From a bacterium (GTDB lineage Bacteria; Armatimonadota; HRBIN16), in the NCBI GenBank assembly GCA_025057335.1, contig JANWXG010000001.1, forward strand, positions 1 through 37,983: a stretch of DNA of 37,983 nucleotides, in the 5' to 3' direction. Position numbers and translations under genes: made by a program. The notes below the pieces were generated by a model. That model had not been told where the DNA came from. It worked only from the letters and a program-made list of their open reading frames with translations, and did not search any database. Below, one piece after another: positions 2,999 to 28,033 of this stretch (position 1 is its first letter; every line of letters begins with the position of its first letter).

Positions 2999-4096
2999 GT
3001 GCAGGGAGAGACCAGTGGGCAAAGAAGTGAGCGGAGCCAGATGAGCGAAGAGCAGCTCCAATGGTGGCAGAAGATGCTCTTGCCGTTTTCGGTGCTGTAT
3101 GCTGCGGGACTGGAGGTCTATTTGTGGTGGAGGCTGCCTCGACAGTTCCGAGCGCAGGCAGTGGTGATTTCGGTAGGCAACCTGTCGTTGGGGGGAACGG
3201 GCAAAACGCCGACGGTCATCGCCATCTGCCGCTACTTGCAGCAGAGCGGACGGAAGGTAGGCATCCTCAGCCGGGGGTATGGCGGCACCATGAGCCGCGC
3301 GGGCGGAGTAGTCTCCGACGGACAACGGGTACTGGCGACCGCAGCCGAAGCGGGAGACGAACCGTTGCTGCTTGCCCGAAAGCTGCCCGGAGTGGTAGTG
3401 CTGGTAGGCAAGGATCGCCGTAAGACCGCCCGCCGAGCAGTGGAACAGTTCGGGTGTGAGGTTCTGGTACTGGATGACGGGTTCCAGTACTGGCAACTGC
3501 ATCGCGATGTGGACCTGGTGTTGTTAGATGGAAAGCGCCCCTTCGGGAACGGCTGGACGCTGCCCGCGGGCACGTTACGCGAACCCGCCATACACCTGCA
3601 GCGCGCCCATGCACTGCTAATACAGGGAGGCTCCGCTCAAAGTATCACGCAGAGCTTTCCTCTTCTCCCGTGCTTCCTCTGGCAAAAGTCTCCCGTCAGC
3701 ATTCGTTCACTCTACCATGTCCACACCTGCTCCCCCGCGCATCTCCTACAGGGTAAGCGAGTGTTCGCCTTAGCAGCTATCGCCAGTTTCGACTCGTTCC
3801 CCGCCCTACTCGCCCAACTGGGCGCGCAGATAGCCGGCACGTGGAGCTTACCAGACCATTATCGCTACACTGCCCGTGACGTGACTGAGGCGCAACAGCG
3901 TGCGCGTGCCTGTCGCGCAGACGCCATCGTGGTGACAGAGAAGGATGCGGTTAAACTGGAGGAGATGGACAGCCTGCCGCAAGAGATACCCTTCTGGGTG
4001 CTGGATATCGAGGCGCAGTTCTCCCAGGGGTTTTGGCGCTGGCTGGACGCCCAGATACGCACTGCAGAGCATGCCCATGCGCATCAGACCGTTTGA
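2999..4096 (+). CDS. lpxK: Tetraacyldisaccharide 4'-kinase (lipid A biosynthesis)
   Basis: P-loop context VISVGNLSLGGTGKTPTVI plus ILSRGYGG are characteristic LpxK motifs. The start is uncertain: GTG 2999 or ATG 3042 (MSEEQLQWW). Confidence 0.85.
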   Translation: MQGETSGQRSERSQMSEEQLQWWQKMLLPFSVLYAAGLEVYLWWRLPRQFRAQAVVISVGNLSLGGTGKTPTVIAICRYLQQSGRKVGILSRGYGGTMSRAGGVVSDGQRVLATAAEAGDEPLLLARKLPGVVVLVGKDRRKTARRAVEQFGCEVLVLDDGFQYWQLHRDVDLVLLDGKRPFGNGWTLPAGTLREPAIHLQRAHALLIQGGSAQSITQSFPLLPCFLWQKSPVSIRSLYHVHTCSPAHLLQGKRVFALAAIASFDSFPALLAQLGAQIAGTWSLPDHYRYTARDVTEAQQRARACRADAIVVTEKDAVKLEEMDSLPQEIPFWVLDIEAQFSQGFWRWLDAQIRTAEHAHAHQTV

Positions 4097-19608: not shown

Positions 19609-19637
19609 TTGACAGCCCCCTCGTGACTTGTTACAAT
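19609..19637 (+). promoter_or_regulatory. Strong sigma70-type promoter of the pil operon
   Basis: TTGACA (19609-19614), 17-nt spacer, TACAAT (19632-19637). A purine-rich RBS GGGGGAGGAGGAGAAGG and ATG 19669 follow. Confidence 0.55.
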
Positions 19638-19668: not shown

Positions 19669-20985
19669 ATGGCACGTGCCCGAAAAGCAACAGGACCCGT
19701 TTTAGGCTTGGATGTAGGGACGACCTTCATCAAGGTAGCGGAGGTACGTCCGAGTAAAGAAGGTGTGCAGATTAACGCCGTGGGCATGGCTCCCACGCCA
19801 GAGGGCGTTATCGACGAGAGCGGTTACGTTCAGGACCCACAGACGCTCGGACAGGCGATTCGGCAGCTGATGTCCCAAGCAGGCATCTCCACTCGACAGG
19901 TGGTCACCTCCATTCCGGGACAGAGCGCCTTGGTGGTGCGCGTTATCGAGATGCCTAAAATGAGCCCTGCCGAACTGGACAAGTCGATGGCGTGGGAAGT
20001 GGAACGACACATTCCCTTTGCCGCGCAGGGCGACGTGGTCACCGACTACGCAGTTGTGGAGCGCCCTAACGCAGACCCCAACGACCCCAATATGGAGGTA
20101 CTGCTCGCCGCTGCCCAGCAAGACGTGGTCGATGCGGTGGTCAAGGCGCTGTTTGCTGCGCAACTAGACCCCGTCGCTATCGACGTGCAGGTGCTGGCAA
20201 CGGCGCGCACTATCATCGGCTTGCAACCCGAAAAATACCGCGACAAGACCGTGGTGCTGTTGAATATCGGAGCCACAGCTACCGACATGGGCGTGTTCCA
20301 AAGCGGGGTGCTACGCCTACCACGTACCATTCCCATCGCGGGCAACCATTTCACCCAGGCGATTGTGGACTCGCTGGCGTACCGCGTGGAAGGCACAGAC
20401 CCCCGCGAAAGGTTCGCTCACGCAGAGAAGCTCAAGCGCGAGTACGCTGCGGTGCTGCTGGAGCGCCTGGGACCCACCTCCTCCCCTACCTTTGGCGCAG
20501 GCTTCGGGATGCCGACAGGAATGGTGGACTTCTCGCAACCCTCAACGCCCGGTCCTGTAGACTTCTCTGCAGGGTTCGGCGAGCCTAGCTTCGATGTAGG
20601 GGAGGAGCAGCCAGCGCCGCCCGCCCAGCCTACGCCGCCAGTGCCCGCCGAGGCAGAAGAGACCGACCCCCTACGCATCGAGGTGTTCGAGGCGATTGCT
20701 CCCGTGTTGGGAGACTTCCTCGCGGAGGTGCGTCGCTCCATAGAGTTCTATCGTGGGCGTGTACCCGGAGCGCAGGTGGACGAAATCGTGTTGTGTGGCG
20801 GCACCGCTAGAATGAAGAACATGGACCGGTTTCTGACGCAGGAGTTGGGAATCCCTGTGAGCGTCGCCGACCCGCTGACCCATCAGGAGAACCTCGTACG
20901 CCGCTACACGATGCCTTATCTGCAAGAGGTCGCTCCGCTGATGACGGTAGCTATCGGACTAGCGGTTCGGGATATGATCGACTAG
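19669..20985 (+). CDS. pilM: Type IV pilus assembly protein PilM (actin-like ATPase fold) with a ~65-aa low-complexity insert
   Basis: LGLDVGTTFIKVAEVR..., VTSIPGQSALVVRVIEMPKMSPAELDKSMAWEVERHIPF and LCGGTARMKNMDRFLTQELGIPV are PilM hallmarks. At 438 aa it is about 80 aa longer than the usual ~350 aa. Confidence 0.9.
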   Translation: MARARKATGPVLGLDVGTTFIKVAEVRPSKEGVQINAVGMAPTPEGVIDESGYVQDPQTLGQAIRQLMSQAGISTRQVVTSIPGQSALVVRVIEMPKMSPAELDKSMAWEVERHIPFAAQGDVVTDYAVVERPNADPNDPNMEVLLAAAQQDVVDAVVKALFAAQLDPVAIDVQVLATARTIIGLQPEKYRDKTVVLLNIGATATDMGVFQSGVLRLPRTIPIAGNHFTQAIVDSLAYRVEGTDPRERFAHAEKLKREYAAVLLERLGPTSSPTFGAGFGMPTGMVDFSQPSTPGPVDFSAGFGEPSFDVGEEQPAPPAQPTPPVPAEAEETDPLRIEVFEAIAPVLGDFLAEVRRSIEFYRGRVPGAQVDEIVLCGGTARMKNMDRFLTQELGIPVSVADPLTHQENLVRRYTMPYLQEVAPLMTVAIGLAVRDMID

Positions 20986-21006: not shown

Positions 21007-22011
21007 ATGCTGAAACTCAACCTACTACCCCCGAACATCTACGAACCGCGCAAGAAACGCGCGTGGTTCGCTTTGTTTCTGGTAGTGTGGATTGCTCTCG
21101 CGGGGGGATTGATTGCGTGGCAGTTGAGCCTCGTTAACCTGAAGTCGCAGAAGACCCAGGAGCTACAGCAGCAAGAGGCGATCGTGCAGCAGGTAAACCA
21201 GACGGAACAGGAAGCACAGCGCACACGGGCGATGGTAGCGCCTCTGCTCACCCGAACCCAGCTGGCAGACGAGATATTCCGCTACAACCGGCAGTATCCT
21301 AAGCTGTATCGCGAGGTGCGCCGCTGGACGATTGACACCGTGCGCTACGGAAGCATGGGCGTAGCGCAAGGGATGACGCTGCAAGCACAGGCGGTCACGC
21401 GCGACCTAGACGAGATGGCACGCTATCTGCAAATTATGCTGCGGTGTCCGTTGTTCACGGGGGTGAGCATCTCCTGGAGCGGAGCAGGTGGTACTACCAC
21501 AACGCCCACTGCGCCAATGGCAGGGCTAGGGGGCGTTGCGGGTGCTCCTCCCCTCGGAGGGGCTGTAGGCGTTCCTCCCTTCGGCGGCGCCCCGTACGGC
21601 GTCGGTGCTCCGTACGGTGCTCCTTCGGGCATCCCGGGGGCGCCTGGCACTTTTGGCGCACCTGGCGCTCCAGGCGCTGGCTGGAGAGGAACTGGGCCTA
21701 CAGGACAGCAGGCTGCGCAGCAGGGAGTCGTGTTCACCGTCGTCGCCACCTTGCGCGAGCCAGTGATGAGCCAGGTGCAGCAGCTGGTGCAGCAACTGGT
21801 CTCCTCGCTAGGTGGGGTAGGCATGCCTGGTATGGGAGGTATGGGTGCTGGCATGGGAATGCCCGGCGCACCGATGATGGGACCTGGCGTGCCCGGAGCG
21901 CCTCCGATGATGGGTGCTCCGCCCAGCATGGGCGGCGGGATGCCTCCAGTGGGCGCTCCGCCACAGGGAGCGGCGCCCGCTTTGGGAGGACGAGGTCTGA
22001 CGGTGGACTAA
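21007..22011 (+). CDS. pilN: PilN-like type IV pilus assembly protein with long Gly/Pro/Met-rich C-terminal extensions
   Basis: MLKLNLLPPNIYEPRKKR + TM helix + coiled coil is the PilN N-terminal signature. It sits immediately after pilM, and ATG 21007 is 6 nt after GGAGGGAGG. The C-terminal half is low complexity. Confidence 0.8.
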   Translation: MLKLNLLPPNIYEPRKKRAWFALFLVVWIALAGGLIAWQLSLVNLKSQKTQELQQQEAIVQQVNQTEQEAQRTRAMVAPLLTRTQLADEIFRYNRQYPKLYREVRRWTIDTVRYGSMGVAQGMTLQAQAVTRDLDEMARYLQIMLRCPLFTGVSISWSGAGGTTTTPTAPMAGLGGVAGAPPLGGAVGVPPFGGAPYGVGAPYGAPSGIPGAPGTFGAPGAPGAGWRGTGPTGQQAAQQGVVFTVVATLREPVMSQVQQLVQQLVSSLGGVGMPGMGGMGAGMGMPGAPMMGPGVPGAPPMMGAPPSMGGGMPPVGAPPQGAAPALGGRGLTVD

Positions 22012-22026: not shown

Positions 22027-22884
22027 ATGCTAGGGAAACTCACCTTGCAAAACGTCATCGTCATCGGTATCGTGGTGTCGGTAGTCATCGCTTCCGGCAT
22101 CTTCTTCGTGTTGATACGCCCCACTCAGGCGGAGATTAAAAACCTGAACGCCCAGATCGAGGCGGCGAGCCAGCGGGCGGCGCAGTTGCCTGCCGCCAAG
22201 AGGCAATTGGAGGATGCGAAGAAAGAGGTGGAAGAGGCTCGCCAGAAGTGGGCGCGCTACGAGCGGTCGAAGATGCCCAATATCGACATGACAGACCGCC
22301 TGAAGGCGGCGCTGGCTTACTGGAAAGAGCCAGAGCGCACTGCGAAGGTGCTACAGGATTTCGTCTCCAAGTCACAGGATGTGGTTTTCCTAGGTGGTTT
22401 CGCTATCAACGTGCCGACCACCGACCCGAACCAGCTGCCCTGGCCTATCTGGATAGTGCCTTTGGGCACGTTCCAAGTGCAGGGTGATTTCGAGAGCATC
22501 CTGCGTCACGTGGAGCGGTGGAACAATGCACCGCGCCTTGTGCTGGTAGATGGATTGCAACTGAGCGGCGTCAGTCCTCAACTGATAGGACAGTACACCG
22601 CCACGCTATTCATCTTGCCGCGAGCAAAAGACGACAAGCCTGCAGACCTACTGCCCTCCGCAGGAGGCGCACCCGGAATGGGCATGATGCCAGGAATGAG
22701 GATGCCCGGAATGCCTAGCGCGCCAATGATGCCTGGTGCGCCCATGATGGGAGCTCCGCCCAGCATGGGCGGCGGGATGCCCCCAATGGGTGGACCGCGC
22801 CCGCCGATGGCTCCTAGCGGCGGGGCAGGAGTCACGGGTCCCGCTTTGGGCGGTCCCAGCGCGCCCGGCGTGGAGGAGTACTAA
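22027..22884 (+). CDS. pilO: PilO-like type IV pilus assembly protein with a Met/Gly/Pro-rich tail
   Basis: N-terminal TM helix, then a coiled coil (EIKNLNAQIEAASQRAAQLPAAKRQLEDAKKEVEEARQKW), then a ferredoxin-like core. Position after pilN and an AAGGAGGG RBS support the call. Confidence 0.7.
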   Translation: MLGKLTLQNVIVIGIVVSVVIASGIFFVLIRPTQAEIKNLNAQIEAASQRAAQLPAAKRQLEDAKKEVEEARQKWARYERSKMPNIDMTDRLKAALAYWKEPERTAKVLQDFVSKSQDVVFLGGFAINVPTTDPNQLPWPIWIVPLGTFQVQGDFESILRHVERWNNAPRLVLVDGLQLSGVSPQLIGQYTATLFILPRAKDDKPADLLPSAGGAPGMGMMPGMRMPGMPSAPMMPGAPMMGAPPSMGGGMPPMGGPRPPMAPSGGAGVTGPALGGPSAPGVEEY

Positions 22885-22900: not shown

Positions 22901-23686
22901 ATGCAGCAGTGGCTGAACGATCCGAAGAACAGACCATTGGTCATCGGCGGAGCGATTGCGGTAGTGGTTATTGCTGTTGTCGCGGTTCTCCTGTTCATGG
23001 GCGGCGGCAGCCAGCAGACTACTCCGACTCAGACCACAACCGCTCCAGTGGGAGGACCTTCTCGAGAGGAGCTCGAGGGCGATTACGGCGTGCCTACAAC
23101 GGGGGCACCTCCGATGGCAGGCGGACCGAGGGGCGGGATGGGTATGCCTGGAATGGGTGGTATGCCACGTCCTGGCATGGGCGCACAACAGGCTGCTCAA
23201 GTGCCCGCTGGTAACCCCCCGTCGCGCTACCGCGTGGACCCGTTCAAGCCTTTGCCTTGGGAAGCGGACGTGAGCAAGCCCCCCATCCTGTCGGTGGTCA
23301 CGCCAGTGCGCCTGCAGCCTCTGCCGACGCCTCGCGTGAGGGAGGAAGAGCAGGAAGACATTCTTCCCCCGCAGCCCTACCGTCGGGTAGCAGGCATCAT
23401 GTGGGGACAGAGCGTAGCGGCAATTATCGAGACGCAGGGCGACCTGCCCCGTGTAGTGAAGCCGGGAGATACCATTGACGGGTTGCGCGTGGCACGCATC
23501 GAGCCCAACCAAGTCGTACTTTCTACACTGGGCAGGAAACCCCAGGAGATTAGCGTCAAACTGGGCGCACCGATTACCCCAGTACAGCGTGCTTTCCCCG
23601 GCGCTGGCGGTGTGCCAGGAGCAGGAGGTATCCCTGGCGTGCCTCCCGGTGGATTCCCTGGCGGCGGTGCCATGGAAGACTACTGA
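22901..23686 (+). CDS. PilP-position protein: N-terminal TM anchor, Gly/Met-rich linker, PilP/GspC-HR-like beta domain, Gly/Pro tail
   Basis: ATG 22901 follows AAGGAGG. The TM segment is LVIGGAIAVVVIAVVAVLLF. The C-terminal domain YRRVAGIMWGQSVAAIIETQGDLPRVVKPGDTIDGLRVARIEPNQVVLS matches the PilP/GspC beta-sandwich pattern. The upstream part of the track ORF (22790-) overlaps pilO. Confidence 0.55.
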   Translation: MQQWLNDPKNRPLVIGGAIAVVVIAVVAVLLFMGGGSQQTTPTQTTTAPVGGPSREELEGDYGVPTTGAPPMAGGPRGGMGMPGMGGMPRPGMGAQQAAQVPAGNPPSRYRVDPFKPLPWEADVSKPPILSVVTPVRLQPLPTPRVREEEQEDILPPQPYRRVAGIMWGQSVAAIIETQGDLPRVVKPGDTIDGLRVARIEPNQVVLSTLGRKPQEISVKLGAPITPVQRAFPGAGGVPGAGGIPGVPPGGFPGGGAMEDY

Positions 23687-23771
23687 GATTGTCCCTCGCC
23701 TTGTGCTGGACAGAGGCAGAAAGGAAGGGATTTTCGGATGATGCGCGAAAAAACCTGAGGAGGTTATCTTG

Positions 23772-24557
23772 ATGCAGAAAACGTGGCATGTGATGCTGTG
23801 CCTGATGATGCTGGTGAGCCTGACAGTATCTGGTGTGGCACAGGAAAGTAGTCCCCGAGTGACACTCAACTTGGAGAGTGCAAGCATTGCGGATGCGCTG
23901 AAGCTGCTCTTCCGCGCCACAGGCTTCAACTACACCCTAGATGAGTCCGTAGTGCAGGGGTACGTCACCGTCTCCCTGAAGGACGTGACCTTCGAGACAG
24001 CGTTGCGCACCATCCTGCGTTCAGCCAATCCTCCACTAACCTACCGCGTGGACGGGGGGGTGTATATCATCACGCCCCGCATCGAGATGCCCGACACGAC
24101 GCCGATGGAGACGCAGGTAGAGGAACCTGCCCCGGTTCAGCTGCGCACTGAGAAGATCACGATGCAGCATCTCGACTCACTGGCGATTGCCCAGATACTG
24201 GGCGGTAGCGTCGTTGCGCTCAACCAGACAGGCTGGACGTATAGCGGTGGGGGCGGTTACGGCGGCTACGGCGGTTTCGGCGGTGGCTTTGGAGGCGGCT
24301 ACGGCGGCTTCGGAGGCGGCTACGGCGGTTTCGGCGGTGGCTACGGCGGCTTCGGAGGCGGCTACGGTGGCTTCGGTGGCTTTGGCGGCTTCGGAGGCGG
24401 CTACGGCGGCTTTGGTGGCGGCTACGGTGGCCTCGGCGGTGGCTGGGGTGGTGGCGGCTTCGGCGGAGGCTTCAACCGCGGCGGCTTCGGTGGCGGTTTC
24501 GGCGGTGGCTTCGGTCGCGGCGGCGGCTGGGGCGGCGGACGCGGTGGTGGTTTCTAG
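23772..24557 (+). CDS. Secreted secretin-N-terminus (STN/N0-like) paralog ending in a 104-aa Gly-Tyr/Phe repeat tail
   Basis: Signal peptide MQKTWHVMLCLMMLVSLTVSGVAQ. STN-like domain VTLNLESASIADALKLLFRATGFNYTLDESVVQGYVTVSLKDVTFETALRTILRSANPPLTYRVDGGVYIITP. The tail is (GGYGGFG)n running to the stop. ATG 23772 is 8 nt after GAGGAGG. Confidence 0.75.
   Translation: MQKTWHVMLCLMMLVSLTVSGVAQESSPRVTLNLESASIADALKLLFRATGFNYTLDESVVQGYVTVSLKDVTFETALRTILRSANPPLTYRVDGGVYIITPRIEMPDTTPMETQVEEPAPVQLRTEKITMQHLDSLAIAQILGGSVVALNQTGWTYSGGGGYGGYGGFGGGFGGGYGGFGGGYGGFGGGYGGFGGGYGGFGGFGGFGGGYGGFGGGYGGLGGGWGGGGFGGGFNRGGFGGGFGGGFGRGGGWGGGRGGGF
24243..24554 (+). repeat. In-frame 21-nt tandem repeat encoding GGYGGFG heptads
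   Basis: GGCGGCTACGGCGG(C/T)TTCGG(A/C/T) recurs at 24295, 24316, 24337 and 24358, with degenerate copies on both sides. Confidence 0.9.
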
Positions 24558-24638
24558 TGCGTCCGCCCCCGGCACCGCCGGGTCATCGCTGCTCTGCAAG
24601 CTAACGATCTGTAACGAGTAAAAGGAGGACAGAGGTTC

Positions 24639-26318
24639 ATGACACTCCGAGGATGGCGCAATGTCGCGACGTGGTTCGTCGTGGCGTATGCTGTATGGGG
24701 TTCGCTCCCTGCAACGAGTGCTCCGCGCACTCAACAAAACATGCCTTTGGTCAGCCTGACTCTGGTGGAAGCAGAGTTTCGTGATGCAGTGAACATGCTC
24801 ATGCAACGTAGTGGAGCAAGTATTGTGTTGGAGCCGAGCGACAAACCGTACCCGCGCGTGAATGTGAACTTGGTAGACATGCCTTTGGACAAAGCGCTGG
24901 AGTACCTGGCGCGCTCCGCAGGGGCGCGTGTGCGACGCACCGAAGATGGGGTGTTCCTGATTGGTCCTGCTGACAAGGAACCAGAGGCGCCTGTGGTCAA
25001 TGCACCTGCAGAGGAGCCAGTTCTCCCGCCAGCGCCCGTGCGGCTGCGCACGGAGAAGATGAAACTGCAGTACATCAATCCCAGCGAATTCCTCATGCAG
25101 TTGCGCACGGACCCAGAGATTATCGGTATGGACTGGGCGGCACGCAACAGCGGAGCGCTTCTGCAACACCTCATGGACATGACTCGCCCTGGCATGCGCC
25201 CGCTAACTCAACCCCAGCCCATCCTGCCTACAGCGCCTCAGCAGGCTCCCACCTCGACGACCTCCACCACGAACGCTGAACATATGCCCACTCCCAACAC
25301 TGGCTTCGACCAGCGCGGCGCTATGGGCGGAGGAATGGGCTTTGGCGGACAAGTTGGTGGGTTCCGTGGTGGATTGGGCGGCTTCGGGCAGCCTGGGGTC
25401 GGCGGCGGTCTGGGACAGCCAGGTATTGGTGCTGGTGGACAACCGGGTATCGGTGGCGCCGCTGGCGGACTGCTGCAGCTGAGCGCCGATGCACGCATCA
25501 TCGCCGTAGACGTTGACAACTCGCTCATCGTCATCGGCACTGACGAGGACATCGAAACCATCCGCCGCTTCATCCGACTGCTGGATGTGGCGCCGCGACA
25601 GGTAGAGATTAAGGCGGAGTTCGTCACCGTAAAAGTCAGCGAGGTACAGCAGTTCGGTATCGACTGGCTGGTGCAGCAGCTGAATACGCAGGCGGGTAAT
25701 GTGCCTGGTACCTTCGCTCCAGGTGGCAACATCTTTATTCGCTACAGTGCGGGGAACCTGACGGCGGAGCTGCGCACGGCGCTCTCTAACTCGCGTGGTC
25801 GCGTCATCCAGGCTCCCGTCATCACTACCCTGAACAATACGCCCGGCTCTATCTTCGTACAAACCCAGGTGCCTTTCGTGACGACAGTGTTCACCACGCC
25901 GGGACAGGGACAGGTGATTCAGGGTAGTCAGGTGAACTACGTGCCTGTCGTGTCGGGTATGACCGTGACCCCGCGTATTAACGGCGACGGCACCATCACT
26001 TTGTTCATTCCGCTACAGCTGTCAGACATCACGGGTTCGGTACGTGCACCCGACGGCAGCACGTTCCCGATTATCAACAGCCAGGCGGTCTTCACCACGC
26101 GGCGCGTACCCAGCGGACAGACGGTGGTACTGGGCGGCTTCATCCGGCGCAGCGAAGACCGCTCTGTGGCGAAGTTCCCCATCCTGGGCGACCTGCCCTG
26201 GATTGGACACCTGTTCCGTTCCACCAACTTCTCACAGGACGACACCGAGCTGCTCATCTTCCTGACACCACGCATTCTCGAGGAAGCGGGAGCACCAACT
26301 ATCGGCGTTACACCCTAA
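24639..26318 (+). CDS. pilQ: Type IV pilus secretin PilQ (GspD/PilQ family) with an internal Gly-rich insert
   Basis: Signal peptide and STN-like N-terminus. Secretin_N element ARIIAVDVDNSLIVIGTDEDIETIRRFIRLLD. C-terminal secretin domain ending FPILGDLPWIGHLFRSTNFSQDDTELLIFLTPRIL. AAAGGAGG RBS upstream. Confidence 0.9.
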   Translation: MTLRGWRNVATWFVVAYAVWGSLPATSAPRTQQNMPLVSLTLVEAEFRDAVNMLMQRSGASIVLEPSDKPYPRVNVNLVDMPLDKALEYLARSAGARVRRTEDGVFLIGPADKEPEAPVVNAPAEEPVLPPAPVRLRTEKMKLQYINPSEFLMQLRTDPEIIGMDWAARNSGALLQHLMDMTRPGMRPLTQPQPILPTAPQQAPTSTTSTTNAEHMPTPNTGFDQRGAMGGGMGFGGQVGGFRGGLGGFGQPGVGGGLGQPGIGAGGQPGIGGAAGGLLQLSADARIIAVDVDNSLIVIGTDEDIETIRRFIRLLDVAPRQVEIKAEFVTVKVSEVQQFGIDWLVQQLNTQAGNVPGTFAPGGNIFIRYSAGNLTAELRTALSNSRGRVIQAPVITTLNNTPGSIFVQTQVPFVTTVFTTPGQGQVIQGSQVNYVPVVSGMTVTPRINGDGTITLFIPLQLSDITGSVRAPDGSTFPIINSQAVFTTRRVPSGQTVVLGGFIRRSEDRSVAKFPILGDLPWIGHLFRSTNFSQDDTELLIFLTPRILEEAGAPTIGVTP

Positions 26319-26384: not shown

Positions 26385-26945
26385 ATGCGATGGGATGTGC
26401 CAGTAAATGTTGCGCTCATCGGTTTCATGGGCACAGGCAAGACGCTGCTTGGGCAGATGCTAGCGCAGCGATGGGGATGGCGATTCGTCGACACCGACTC
26501 GCTAGTAGAGCAACGGCTAGGATGTAGTGTTGCGCAGGTTTTCGAACGCTTTGGAGAGGAGTTCTTCCGGCAGCAAGAGACTGAGGTTCTGCGCAGTCTG
26601 GAGGTGGAGCGTCAGCTCGTTATCGCTACAGGCGGCGGTGTGCCCACACGCCCCGAGAATGTGCGTTCCCTGCGCCGACACGCCGTGCTGGTATTGCTCA
26701 CGGCAGCCCCAGAGGTGATTGTGCAACGTATACAGCCTGTGCACAGCCGCCCCAAGCTGGCTTCCGCTCCCGACGTGTTGGCGGAGGTGCATCGCCTGTT
26801 GCGCGAGCGCGAGCCCGCCTACGCTTGCGCCGACCTGCGTCTGGACACTTCTGCTCTTCACCCTGAAGAAGCCGTGCAACGCCTCGAGGAGCTGATTACC
26901 ACATGGAGACCCACTCCACGCTGTTCAGGCTCGACGTCCCTCTAG
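26385..26945 (+). CDS. aroK: Shikimate kinase
   Basis: VALIGFMGTGKTLLGQMLA (P-loop), FVDTD, and GGGVPTRPEN (the LID-preceding motif). Confidence 0.9.
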   Translation: MRWDVPVNVALIGFMGTGKTLLGQMLAQRWGWRFVDTDSLVEQRLGCSVAQVFERFGEEFFRQQETEVLRSLEVERQLVIATGGGVPTRPENVRSLRRHAVLVLLTAAPEVIVQRIQPVHSRPKLASAPDVLAEVHRLLREREPAYACADLRLDTSALHPEEAVQRLEELITTWRPTPRCSGSTSL

Positions 26946-28033
26946 GAGACCGCAGCTACCCCATTCTGGTCGGTAGGGGGGTACTGCAGCACGTTGGCGA
27001 ACACCTGCGTGCGTTGCAACCGTCGCAGTTGGCAATCCTCACCCACCCACAGCTAGCGCAGTGGTATGGTGAACCTATCGTCGCTTCCTTGCAGCAAGCC
27101 GGCATTCCCACCCACCTACTCCCCGTTCCGCCCGGTGAGCGAACGAAACGCTGGGAGGTGGTCGGACGGCTACTGCGCCAGATGGCACAGCGGGCGCTGG
27201 ACCGGCGATGCGTCGTGGTGGCGCTCGGGGGCGGCGTCATTGGCGACCTAGCGGGGTTCGTGGCGGCGTGTTACCTACGCGGTGTACGATATGTGCAGAT
27301 ACCTACGACCCTGCTGGCGCAGGTAGACTCCAGCGTGGGTGGCAAGACGGGTGTGAATCTACCGGAGGGCAAGAATCTGGTAGGAGCATTTCATCAGCCC
27401 GTGCTAGTGCTCATCGATACAGATACCCTTGCGACGTTGCCGCGTCGTCACTTTCGGGCAGGCTTGGCAGAAGTGCTGAAATACGGGCTGATCGCAGACG
27501 AAGCGCTATGGCACCTCGTGCGGGCAGAAGCCTCCTCCCTGCGGCAGGGACAGAGCGAGCGTCTAGAGGAAATAGTCTACCGCTGTTGTGCCATCAAGGC
27601 ACGGATTGTCTCCGAAGACGAGACCGAGCAAGGCGTGCGCGCCATCTTGAACTTCGGGCATACGGTCGGTCACGCGCTGGAAGCAGTGGAGGGCTATGGT
27701 CGCCTGCTGCACGGCGAGGCAGTGGCGATTGGTATGGTGTCGGCAGCGCTGGTGGGCGAGGTTGTTGGCGTGACGCCCGCTGGTACGGCGGAGGAGATAG
27801 CACGCTCACTGCAGGCGCTTGGCTTGCCCGTTACGTTGCCGCAGGGAGTGGATTTCGCACGTCTGCTCCAAGTGATGGCGCGAGACAAGAAGGCGCGAGA
27901 TGGTCAGGTGCGTTTCGTGCTGTTGGAGCGCGTGGGGCAGGCACGCTTGCCTGTCGCGGTGAATGAAGAAGCAGTGATTCGCGCCTTGAGCCTGCATCAG
28001 CAAAAGTTCGTGCAGAGAACCACAGGGGGATGA
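26903..28033 (+). CDS. aroB: 3-dehydroquinate synthase
   Basis: YPILVGRG..., GGGVIGDLAGFVAA, IPTTLLAQVDSSVGGKTGVN, GAFHQP and NFGHTVGHALE. Overlaps aroK by 43 nt. Confidence 0.95.
   Translation: METHSTLFRLDVPLGDRSYPILVGRGVLQHVGEHLRALQPSQLAILTHPQLAQWYGEPIVASLQQAGIPTHLLPVPPGERTKRWEVVGRLLRQMAQRALDRRCVVVALGGGVIGDLAGFVAACYLRGVRYVQIPTTLLAQVDSSVGGKTGVNLPEGKNLVGAFHQPVLVLIDTDTLATLPRRHFRAGLAEVLKYGLIADEALWHLVRAEASSLRQGQSERLEEIVYRCCAIKARIVSEDETEQGVRAILNFGHTVGHALEAVEGYGRLLHGEAVAIGMVSAALVGEVVGVTPAGTAEEIARSLQALGLPVTLPQGVDFARLLQVMARDKKARDGQVRFVLLERVGQARLPVAVNEEAVIRALSLHQQKFVQRTTGG

Follow-up and report, generated by a model that had tools for sequence, protein, structure and literature searches.

We analysed a 37,983-nucleotide stretch of DNA from a bacterium of the phylum Armatimonadota (HRBIN16; assembly GCA_025057335.1, contig JANWXG010000001.1, positions 1 to 37,983), referred to below as the window, with a focus on a gene at 23772-24557 that lies directly upstream of the type IV pilus (T4P) secretin gene pilQ. 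The product of this gene, which we call STN-Gly, joins a secretin-type N-terminal module to a long C-terminal tail of glycine and aromatic residues. Its open reading frame (ORF) spans 786 nt, from an ATG at 23772 (with an in-frame TTG ahead of it at 23769) to a stop codon at 24555-24557, and the gene has the following features, with confidence in the AlphaFold2 model given as predicted local distance difference test (pLDDT) scores:

23759-23763, + strand: Shine-Dalgarno sequence GGAGG, 8 nt upstream of the ATG, read from the sequence
23772-24557, + strand: STN-Gly gene, 261 amino acids (aa) plus stop, with the same gene call in two public assemblies
23772-23840, + strand: predicted Sec-type signal peptide, residues 1-23, with predicted cleavage between VA and QE
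23853-24077, + strand: N0/STN domain, residues 28-102, from Pfam STN, pLDDT, Foldseek and phmmer
24078-24140, + strand: acidic, Pro/Thr-rich linker, residues 103-123, pLDDT ~46-58, differing in sequence among homologs
24141-24209, + strand: orphan first half of an N1 (Secretin_N) domain, strand-helix RTEKITMQHLDSLAIAQILGG, residues 124-146, aligning with PilQ RTEKMKLQYINPSEFLMQL
24243-24554, + strand: Gly/aromatic tail, residues 158-261, from composition, tandem repeat, pLDDT, gradient and grammar

Residues 1-23 are predicted to form a type-I signal peptide based on a basic n-region, a hydrophobic N-terminal helix at residues 4-21 in the AlphaFold2 model, and the near-invariance of Ala23 and Gln24 across 91 homologs. 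No conserved lipobox cysteine was found in STN-Gly; Cys10 lies inside the hydrophobic core and is missing from many homologs. The domain that follows matches Pfam STN (PF07660) at E = 9.9e-11 and 41.7 bits, above the cut-off of 28.4 bits, and is modelled at pLDDT >90 over residues 28-102 (AlphaFold2, built with a 91-sequence alignment). Foldseek and phmmer agree on its best solved structure, the N0 domain of Neisseria PilQ (4ar0; phmmer against the PDB, 8e-6), with LspD N0, DotD, V. cholerae PilQ and XcpQ N0 ranking next. The strand-helix at residues 124-146, which contains an Asp135 that is invariant across the family, is modelled at low confidence (pLDDT 55-63), and the tail at pLDDT ~40 with no secondary structure. 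A sequence-only reading of this stretch had proposed the same architecture—signal peptide, STN/N0 domain, Gly/aromatic tail—and suggested an hmmscan search for STN; the Pfam match, the AlphaFold2 model, the Foldseek matches and the tail count all agree with it.

Among NCBIfam models, those for PilQ, HofQ and GspD cover just their first ~115-140 positions on STN-Gly and score far under their cut-offs, the N-terminal region being weakly similar to the DNA-uptake porin HofQ (E = 1e-5). In Pfam searches of the 91 aligned family members, STN was the sole family, plus the related GspD N0 model (PF21305) in 6/91. The secretin barrel (PF00263) was not matched in STN-Gly or the 91 homologs, nor were Plug, TonB_dep_Rec, FecR or LysM, and in place of a complete N1/N3 domain (Secretin_N, PF03958) STN-Gly has the first strand-helix only. 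The parts that are present recur in the protein encoded immediately downstream:

24639-26318, + strand: pilQ secretin gene, Pfam Secretin E = 4e-41, with AlphaFold2 model
24747-24968, + strand: N0 domain of PilQ, from Pfam and AlphaFold2, as for the N1 halves and barrel below
25047-25100, + strand: first half of PilQ N1
~25101-25493, + strand: Gly/Gln/Pro-rich insert of PilQ (Gly-rich stretch 25281-25478), kept in 30 operons
25494-25583, + strand: second half of PilQ N1
25599-26279, + strand: secretin barrel of PilQ

This PilQ, whose best Foldseek match is the V. cholerae type IVa pilus (T4aP) PilQ (6w6m, E = 4.7e-24), aligns over residues 32-147 with STN-Gly residues 24-135, at 35% identity over 118 residues (E = 1e-13). 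Its N1 region (25047-25583, residues 137-315) has an unusual layout. Pfam matches Secretin_N in residues 282-321 to model positions 30-69 only, and the AlphaFold2 model shows a confident strand (137-142) and helix (148-154), then a disordered Gly/Gln/Pro-rich stretch (186-276), then the remaining N1 strands (286-300) and helix (302-315). We deleted the insert in silico and scored the resulting chimeras against Secretin_N. PilQ 282-325 alone matches model positions 33-69 at 33.8 bits; joined to PilQ 131-160, the match extends to positions 5-69 at 38.7 bits, and joined instead to STN-Gly 120-149, it extends to positions 4-69 at 39.0 bits. Since either strand-helix extends the match, the N1 domain of PilQ is split by an insert of ~125 residues, which is kept in all 30 operons examined. 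By sequence comparison, STN-Gly corresponds to PilQ cut within its insert—N0, first N1 half and Gly-rich region—and the low pLDDT of its half-N1 is as expected of an unpartnered half-domain.

We then built a neighbour-joining tree from 29 STN-Gly N0 domains and 29 PilQ N0 domains of the same loci. The two groups are reciprocally monophyletic, with mean N0 distances of 0.50 within STN-Gly, 0.60 within PilQ and 0.84 between the groups, indicating that the duplication that separated STN-Gly from pilQ predates the sampled radiation of the phylum. STN-Gly carries the slower-evolving, more conserved of the two N0 copies. We are confident from these results that STN-Gly goes back to an old tandem duplication that took in only the 5' part of pilQ, with the rest of N1 and the barrel lost. 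Having neither a secretin barrel nor the second half of N1, STN-Gly cannot form a pore.

To define the distribution of the family, we searched with a profile of the N-terminal module, which recovered 353 proteins at E ≤ 1e-8 in a set of 5.8 billion proteins and, from 1.84 billion clusters at 50% identity, 3,568 representatives at E ≤ 1e-3, of which 953 reach ≤ 1e-10; these cluster representatives carry no organism names, and taxonomy is given from named organisms only. Among the best 150 representatives, 42 have a stretch that is at least 50% Gly; these are, with few exceptions, single-STN proteins of ~190-310 aa, and the single-STN matches without such a stretch are mostly short fragments ending where the tail starts. 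The search for an STN plus G[YF]-repeat architecture that the sequence-only reading had called for thus returned a family, and all but one of its named organisms belong to Armatimonadota (Chthonomonadales, Fimbriimonadales, HR16-type and others). The one exception sits on a 1.8-kb contig from an 'Actinomycetota' metagenome-assembled genome (MAG) and is probably mis-binned. In the genome collection we recovered 55 loci of the family, and STN-Gly is present in every Armatimonadota T4P operon sampled, with an N-terminal domain far better conserved than the tail. Source databases name the homologs 'hypothetical' or 'STN domain-containing', or mis-call them as a GspD/HofQ fragment. Full-text searches on Armatimonadota pili and on Gly-rich, STN, FG-repeat and secretin proteins returned no description of the family, and the F. 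ginsengisoli genome paper lists only PilB, C, D, Q and M. This bears out the earlier view that the protein is not a described component of T4P or type II secretion system (T2SS) machines: the family is uncharacterised and seen in Armatimonadota only.

The same searches turned up relatives with other contexts and architectures. In the window's clade, a second, monocistronic STN-Gly paralog occurs at loci L008, L009, L011-L013 and L016-L019 (e.g., L012 5914-6744), with a Trp-richer tail of motif GWGGSGWAGGGW. An alpha-L-arabinofuranosidase gene lies on one side of it at L009, L012, L013, L016, L018 and L019, and a glycoside hydrolase family 127 (GH127) beta-L-arabinofuranosidase gene on the other side at L008, L012, L017 and L018, such that both flanking genes are found only at L012 and L018 and L011 has no neighbour match; no secretin gene was detected near this paralog. 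The profile also matches many proteins with 2-6 tandem STN domains (within P0016-P0164, ~250-700 aa), several of which end in a conserved module, 'D(G/S)(K/R)FLYI(V/L)(R/K)G..(L/V)YKV.KSDLK.V'. Finally, in a Chthonomonas MAG (L029 5890-7008), a short STN-Gly tail reads into two cold-shock-like domains ('KFFN..KGFGFI'), which probably reflects a lost stop codon or mis-assembly, a real fusion being possible.

The tail of STN-Gly in the window consists of 104 residues (73 G, 15 F, 8 Y, 2 W, 3 R, 1 S, 1 L, 1 N), exactly as counted by hand in the sequence-only reading, whose quoted string matches the translation. Aromatic residues account for 25/104 positions (24%) at a spacing of 4.1 ± 1.3 residues and form 13 FG, 8 YG and 2 WG dipeptides, alongside six GYGGFG hexamers; the three Arg are the sole charged residues, leaving the net charge near zero. 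With its low charge, predicted disorder and regular FG/YG aromatic motifs, the tail has the properties of an FG-type sequence, and the resemblance to eukaryotic Gly-rich, FG and FUS-like regions that had been noted earlier is well founded. In the underlying DNA, Tandem Repeats Finder detects two periodicities, one of 21 nt (9.3 copies at 74% matches) and one of 39 nt (3.1 copies at 89% matches), so that the 21-nt period described before stands, while calling the repeats near-perfect overstates matters slightly. The peptide unit GGGYGGF occurs five times in identical form, each time with its own nucleotide version, and the differences between these versions are all synonymous, which argues that the array is old and constrained at the protein level, with no fresh slippage.

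The order of residues along the tail is also non-random. A Tyr/Phe zone (24243-24425) is followed by a Trp/Phe/Asn/Arg zone (24444-24554) with the final sequence GGGRGGGF, and this Tyr-to-Phe/Trp/Arg order is significant by label permutation (p = 2e-4) and was also found in 12 related proteins. Across the window's clade, mean relative positions are 0.1-0.3 for Tyr, ~0.5 for Phe and 0.55-0.9 for Trp, Asn and Arg, and 8 operon orthologs and 5 second paralogs show this gradient despite differing tail lengths. The interpretation put forward from the sequence, that the switch reflects sub-structure rather than random slippage, is upheld by both the permutation and this recurrence.

Extending the comparison across the phylum revealed a tail that is retained yet fluid in sequence. 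It is present in 105/121 family members; the remaining 16 comprise fragments at contig ends, chimeras with adapter sequence, frameshifted copies and proteins of a different architecture. Here, homologs without the tail had been raised as a potential objection, and no complete tail-less member exists among the 121. Tail length ranges from 26 to 113 residues across the family, and from 73 to 106 among operon orthologs ~80% identical in the N-terminal domain. The pooled composition of 134 tails is G 68%, F 9.8%, S 5.2%, N 3.1%, M 2.8%, R 2.4% and Y 2.1%, with P at 0.3% and D, E, K, H and C at essentially 0, and the spacing of hydrophobic and aromatic residues peaks at 3-5. The 'sticker' residue depends on lineage: F, M, Y/W, Q+F, or N/S-rich with sparse F/W/Y. 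Three quarters of tail Arg fall within the last 15 residues, typical C-termini are GGRGGF, GRGF, GFGR and GGGR, and the terminal residue is R in 49 tails, F in 36, G in 32, Y in 5 and W in 4 (aromatic in 45/134). Collectively, the tail is kept as a grammar and not as a sequence; it is selected, not noise.

These observations bear on whether the tail matters at all. It could be argued that only the N0 domain and half-N1 count, acting as a decoy or regulator that competes with the N0 of PilQ for PilP, and that the tail is a slippage by-product inherited from the PilQ insert, at most an inert entropic bristle. Its DNA is indeed a GC-rich tandem repeat, the N-terminal domain is far more conserved, and repeat units are gained and lost among close orthologs within the length ranges given above. 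Neutral slippage products, however, would be expected to be lost or frameshifted in some lineages, whereas in this phylum-deep family no complete member is tail-less and the Gly frame is always kept to a stop that follows an Arg-containing end. Combined with the exclusion of D, E, K and P, the confinement of Arg to the end, the Y-to-F-to-W/N/R order in 13 proteins, and the purely synonymous differences between identical repeat units, this makes such a reading quite improbable.

The terminal Arg residues raise a different question, namely whether STN-Gly handles nucleic acids in the periplasm during transformation, with an RGG-like C-terminus binding DNA at the PilQ channel. The weak HofQ similarity of the N-terminal region (E = 1e-5) is compatible with this, with the N-terminal domains of HofQ and PilQ as a model, as is the binding of nucleic acids by Gly/Arg/aromatic tails in eukaryotic and plant glycine-rich RNA-binding proteins. 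Yet three Arg in 104 residues, and 2.4% Arg family-wide, fall far under the content of RGG domains, the net charge is near zero, the HofQ similarity amounts to the shared N0 fold, and the competence genes comEA and comEC are not found within the 38-kb window. We therefore consider a DNA-handling role very improbable.

We also considered several defined C-terminal signals and folds. A PEP-CTERM-like sorting signal was rejected given that the tail is far too long and non-hydrophobic and that no NCBIfam sorting-signal model matches; the idea came from a 'PE(M/I/L)ST' motif that precedes the tail in many members and from the terminal Arg, but the window's clade lacks this motif and has NQTGWTYS instead. 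A GlyGly-CTERM-type signal likewise has no NCBIfam match, and an outer-membrane beta-signal is inconsistent with a terminal residue that is not conserved. Lastly, a polyglycine-II bundle or otherwise folded Gly-rich tail is not supported, given the pLDDT of ~40, the lack of structure, and a 7-residue repeat where a 3-residue periodicity would apply, although AlphaFold2 performs poorly on such folds.

Because repeats of this kind are prone to errors, we examined whether STN-Gly could be an artefact of assembly or annotation, in which a repeat had been collapsed or joined chimerically, or GC-rich non-coding repeat DNA had been taken for an ORF. Among database homologs, many are listed as 'partial', their contigs breaking within the repeat, and two spurious off-frame ORFs overlie the repeat in the window. 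Set against this, the 786-nt ORF is nucleotide-identical in GCA_025061855.1 and GCA_033580955.1, two assemblies that differ from the window elsewhere, by 0.30% (20.8 kb shared) and 0.54% (7.9 kb shared), respectively. The repeat units are imperfect (74% matches) and hence resolvable by short reads. In 55/55 related loci, the conserved and confidently folded N0 domain passes into the tail without a break in the Gly frame, which reaches the stop codon wherever the contig does not end inside the repeat, and an ortholog lies on a 5.19-Mb contig. The concern that read-level problems might have produced a collapsed, chimeric or frameshifted gene is thus answered by an exact repeat in independent assemblies and a gene in frame; an assembly artefact or frameshift is rejected, and the artefact explanation as a whole retains a vanishingly small probability.

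Gene calls over this repeat do carry some risk. The two off-frame ORFs, both Ala-rich (- strand, 24177-25169; + strand, 24187-24621), arise as a side effect of the GC-rich repeat and could lead to mis-calls. Among the homologs, P0012 and P0013 end in translated sequencing-adapter sequence (SYTHLTLPTTPYV and CLLYTSPSPRDS), and P0024 and P0087 have a frameshift inside the Gly repeat that yields Arg/Trp-rich nonsense.

We next turned to the operon in which STN-Gly and pilQ reside. Its other features in the window are:

19609-19637, + strand: candidate sigma-70-like promoter, TTGACA-17-TACAAT, 11/12 consensus matches, extended TG
19669-20985, + strand: pilM, Pfam PilM_2, E = 4.1e-51
21007-22011, + strand: pilN-like gene with a Gly/Pro/Met-rich C-terminal region (21500-22008), assigned by position, synteny and tail, family matches being weak
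22027-22884, + strand: pilO-like gene with a Gly/Pro/Met-rich C-terminus (22650-22881) ending GVEEY, Pfam PilO E = 6e-4 (weak), and synteny
22901-23686, + strand: PilP/GspC-like gene with Gly-rich regions, ending AMEDY, assigned by weak family matches and synteny
26385-28033, + strand: aroK and aroB, Pfam SKI and DHQ_synthase, and synteny

The promoter candidate, a strong match and the single one upstream of pilM, is, judged from its consensus match, likely the start of the operon, and no terminator-like site was found on the + strand between 19300 and 28200. Second paralogs excepted, the order pilM-pilN-pilO-(pilP-like)-STN-Gly-pilQ-aroK-aroB recurs across the 55 loci wherever the flanks are covered, from the window's clade (~80% identity) to Fimbriimonadales and Chthonomonas (~40%), and also on the 5.19-Mb contig. 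The PilP-like assignment draws on weak matches (GspC_delta E = 5e-4, pilP_fam 0.065, T2SSB 0.008), a homology region (HR)-like domain at residues ~170-213 of the 261-aa product (207-250 in the 298-aa ORF), and a motif kept across the phylum, 'PQPYRR.AG...G...A.IE..DG....V.PG'; a PDB sequence search with its C-terminal region returned no PilP or GspC, only a compositional match to the Hsc70 GGMP tail. The Armatimonadota PilQ itself is short (~505-570 aa: N0, split N1 and barrel), and no AMIN domain (PF11741) was found in the PilQ here, whereas proteobacterial PilQ matches in the same search have one.

Conservation within the operon is uneven. Between close relatives (window 25480-26318 vs. L003-L015), the PilQ barrel region is 53-57% identical and the PilP-like protein 41-55%, compared with 78-95% for PilM, PilN, PilO, the PilQ N-terminus and the STN-Gly N-domain. 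A fast-diverging barrel is unusual for a secretin and may reflect surface-exposed diversification. The ends of PilO (22830-22884, ...PGVEEY) and of the PilP-like protein (23620-23686, GGFPGGGAMEDY) both place EEY/EDY after GGMP-like repeats, and the PilP-like tail is the one that matches the C-terminal GGMP tail of Hsc70 (1ud0, GGMPGGMPGGFPGGGAP). The GGMP tail of Hsp70 precedes an EEVD motif that binds tetratricopeptide repeat (TPR) proteins, and the EEY/EDY ends could be a docking motif for a TPR protein, e.g., a pilotin. These acidic ends contrast with the basic end of STN-Gly, a pattern that is not universal, as Fimbriimonas-type operons end in RGGG.

Glycine enrichment is a property of the machine and not of STN-Gly alone. 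Among real genes of the window, the top local Gly densities (any 30-residue window) belong to PilN, PilO, PilP, STN-Gly and PilQ, and no other real gene there has Gly-rich low-complexity regions of this kind. The PilP-like protein has two Gly-rich low-complexity regions, and such regions are of G/P/M or G/Q/P type in the window, with lineage-specific composition in distant Armatimonadota operons. Since Gly-rich regions occur in all the periplasmic components, the STN-Gly tail is one element of a machine-wide set of flexible segments. One use for these segments would be in the cell wall, with the STN-Gly tail and the Gly-rich regions of PilN, PilO, PilP and PilQ acting as a peptidoglycan spacer or anchor in place of AMIN domains: by passing through or adhering to peptidoglycan, they would fix the machine in the sacculus and span a periplasm of varying width elastically. 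A short PilQ without AMIN, long flexible segments in all five periplasmic components, and a tail contour length (~37 nm) greater than the typical periplasmic width are all in keeping with this idea. Yet no LysM, AMIN, SPOR or OmpA-like motif was detected, the tail is a free C-terminal end and not a linker between anchored domains, and a pure spacer needs no regular aromatics, charge exclusion or conserved gradient. We regard a cell-wall role as quite unlikely.

The position of STN-Gly next to pilQ invites a further comparison, with pilotins. The sequence-only reading had placed the gene in the slot of pilotins or accessory factors upstream of pilQ; the adjacency is correct, and the slot is not, this being normally the place of pilP, and the protein has neither lipobox nor TPR. 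As a PilP/GspC-like gene sits at 22901-23686, STN-Gly is an extra gene between pilP and pilQ. A lipoprotein pilotin is ruled out by the lack of a conserved lipobox and of TPR; Pfam and NCBIfam detect no TPR or pilotin fold in STN-Gly, and the model consists of N0 plus disorder. A non-lipoprotein, pilotin-like assembly or targeting factor is a separate matter: the N0 domain would hold PilQ protomers while the tail, with its terminal Arg, entered the inner-leaflet interface of the outer membrane or engaged the barrel assembly machinery (BAM) to aid insertion of PilQ, after which the factor may leave. The gene is always co-conserved directly upstream of pilQ, and no TPR pilotin gene was found within the 38-kb window. 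The window also encodes lpxK (2999-4096, tetraacyldisaccharide-1-P 4'-kinase, Pfam E = 2e-90), indicating that the organism makes lipid A and has a lipopolysaccharide (LPS) outer membrane. Aromatic residues and Arg have a preference for membrane interfaces, Gram-negative envelopes are the target of glycine-rich aromatic antimicrobial peptides, and the last residue is aromatic in 45/134 members. Against such a factor, cleavage at A23/Q24 is of type I and Cys10 lacks conservation, known pilotins bind the C-terminal S-domain of secretins and not N0, the variable C-terminal residue provides no beta-signal, and the Gly/Ser/Ala tails of L028 and L034 and the Gly/Ser/Asn tail of L058 would be expected to have little membrane affinity. 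On balance, we judge this pilotin-like role unlikely.

We compared STN-Gly with known systems to place it further. Secretin N-modules (Neisseria 4ar0, V. cholerae 6w6m, P. aeruginosa 6ve2) share its N0/STN fold and resemble it through the PilQ N0; the secretin PilQ further shares the first strand-helix of Secretin_N and has its insert at the position of the Gly-rich region, with the difference that in STN-Gly the low-complexity region is a free C-terminal tail with 24% aromatic residues vs. ~6% Phe in the PilQ insert. TonB transducers and FecR-type proteins share the PF07660 fold, and FecA, PupA and BDI_1681 are among the Foldseek matches, but STN-Gly has no TonB barrel, plug or anti-sigma domain, and its best matches and context are PilQ-type. 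Pilotins and accessory proteins (PilF/PilW/Tgl, GspS/AspS, MxiM, TsaP, BfpG and Thermus PilW) are, like STN-Gly, small, exported, secretin-linked and presumed secretin binders; STN-Gly differs from them in having no lipobox, TPR, LysM (which characterises TsaP) or pilotin-family match, and in being secretin-derived rather than of an unrelated fold. Nor does it contain the HR domain of PilP/GspC, the weak HR-like matches belonging to the upstream gene at 22901-23686.

The closest architectural parallel is with stand-alone N0 proteins of the DotD type. DotD, from the outer-membrane core of the Legionella Dot/Icm type IVB secretion system (T4BSS; 3ady, 7mud, 6x62), is likewise a separate polypeptide of an N0-like domain plus disorder, and it co-assembles into a ring. 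Foldseek matches STN-Gly to DotD at E = 2.5e-4 to 1e-2 with no homology detectable by phmmer, and DotD, unlike STN-Gly, is a lipoprotein of a type IV secretion system with no Gly/aromatic tail. The tail in turn resembles FG nucleoporins (FG-Nups), FUS/hnRNPA1 and plant and tick Gly-rich proteins in being Gly-rich, predicted to be disordered and evenly studded with aromatics. The low-complexity aromatic-rich kinked segment (LARKS) of hnRNPA1 is GYNGFG, to which the GYGGFG hexamers are similar. Unlike these eukaryotic cohesive domains, the tail is bacterial, periplasmic and tethered to a folded docking domain, with a much higher Gly content (70%) and aromatic density, and the likeness is one of compositional convergence, not homology. 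With respect to function, SlkA/SlkB (PA5122/PA5123) of P. aeruginosa, compared here by description, are also small, Sec-exported, periplasmic and tied to the T4P secretin; sealing of the pilus-free channel has been demonstrated for Slk, whereas for STN-Gly we infer it, and the Slk genes lie outside the pil operon. SlkA/SlkB homologs are reported to be mostly gammaproteobacterial, and the words 'glycine' and 'disordered' are absent from the text that describes them (PMC13392014).

Taking identity, origin and membership together, we are highly confident that STN-Gly is exported by Sec and belongs to the Armatimonadota type IVa pilus machine as an accessory subunit in the periplasm. Its place in that machine can be proposed by analogy. 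In T4P and T2SS, the N0 domains of secretins make up the ring nearest the inner membrane and bind to the PilP/GspC HR domain, and structures matched by Foldseek (3jc8, 6hcg) include such N0/PilP-GspC-type machines. A stand-alone, more conserved copy of N0 encoded between pilP and pilQ would most simply be an extra subunit at this ring, and we lean toward STN-Gly docking its N0 there much as secretin N0 domains dock on PilP/GspC HR domains and on one another. The orphan half-N1 would probably fold only against a partner. One tail per docked subunit would give ~12-15 tails per pore, each 104-residue tail having a contour length of ~37 nm. Because the Gly-rich segment of PilQ bridges the N0 ring and the N1 domain and barrel nearer the outer membrane, the STN-Gly tails would extend along this linker toward the barrel, in the company of the tails of PilN, PilO and PilP, which are likewise rich in Gly.

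In this position, the tails may self-associate through aromatic contacts and contacts between terminal Arg and aromatic residues to form a cohesive, deformable, uncharged mesh, lining, sealing or plugging the conduit that crosses the periplasm from the inner-membrane platform to the outer-membrane barrel and serving as a gasket through which the pilus could push while small solutes were kept out. By rough estimate, fourteen tails occupy ~142 nm^3, or 24-63% of the volume of a cylinder that, at 6-8 nm across and 8-12 nm in length, has the dimensions of a secretin vestibule. The regular aromatics, lack of acidic residues, terminal Arg and GYGGFG hexamers of the tail correspond to the sticker-spacer features behind condensation and gelation in glycine-rich proteins. 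There is precedent for both parts of this proposal: a tick glycine-rich protein (GRP) in which Arg and aromatic residues recur periodically undergoes phase separation and gelation (PMC11794139), and periplasmic plugs of P. aeruginosa seal PilQ until the inner-membrane complex docks, with the authors predicting other plugs elsewhere (PMC13392014). A more far-reaching version would have the STN-Gly tails build a tethered, cohesive meshwork, to which PilQ, PilN, PilO and PilP contribute through their Gly-rich regions, as a bacterial counterpart of the nuclear-pore FG barrier, one that would seal a leaky 6-8 nm channel to small solutes, pass the pilus and possibly DNA, and replace the stacked folded N-domain rings or dedicated plugs of other phyla.

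Several observations weigh against a mesh. Tail composition drifts widely, from G/F to G/M, G/Q/F and N/S/G with sparse aromatics, and in the Fimbriimonas-like L028 and L034 the tails are near-pure Gly/Ser/Ala with only 2-4% aromatics; strong aromatic cohesion therefore cannot be universal. The role of the family may not be strictly tied to PilQ, given the second paralog away from secretin genes, and a tail with 24% aromatics might just as well collapse, form aggregates or move into a membrane interface. Nor does co-variation help: across 30 operons, the composition of the tail and of the PilQ insert correlate (Spearman F r = 0.40, Y r = 0.61, Q r = 0.49), and these correlations are weak, clade-driven and confounded by phylogeny, and were not used as evidence. 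A mesh or barrier function of the tails is accordingly possible but doubtful, and the comparison with the nuclear-pore barrier falls on the unlikely side. Our favoured account, combining origin, docking and tail mesh, is put forward as a whole only tentatively.

Secretins are wide outer-membrane channels that have to be kept tight. Dedicated plugs in Pseudomonas were described in a 2021 preprint and published in 2026, with unrelated solutions predicted elsewhere (PMC13392014). On a conservative reading, our analysis shows a secretin gene that spawned a new subunit via partial tandem duplication, and corrects database mis-annotations of this subunit as GspD/HofQ fragments. STN-Gly is a phylum-wide, strongly conserved extra T4P subunit, and its sole distinctive feature is a tethered Gly/aromatic low-complexity domain. 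If the Gly-rich regions do form a cohesive matrix, they would be the first sticker-spacer sequences to build part of a bacterial trans-envelope nanomachine, providing a convergent analogue of the nuclear-pore FG barrier and a compact, genetically tractable system for channel gating by tethered low-complexity domains.

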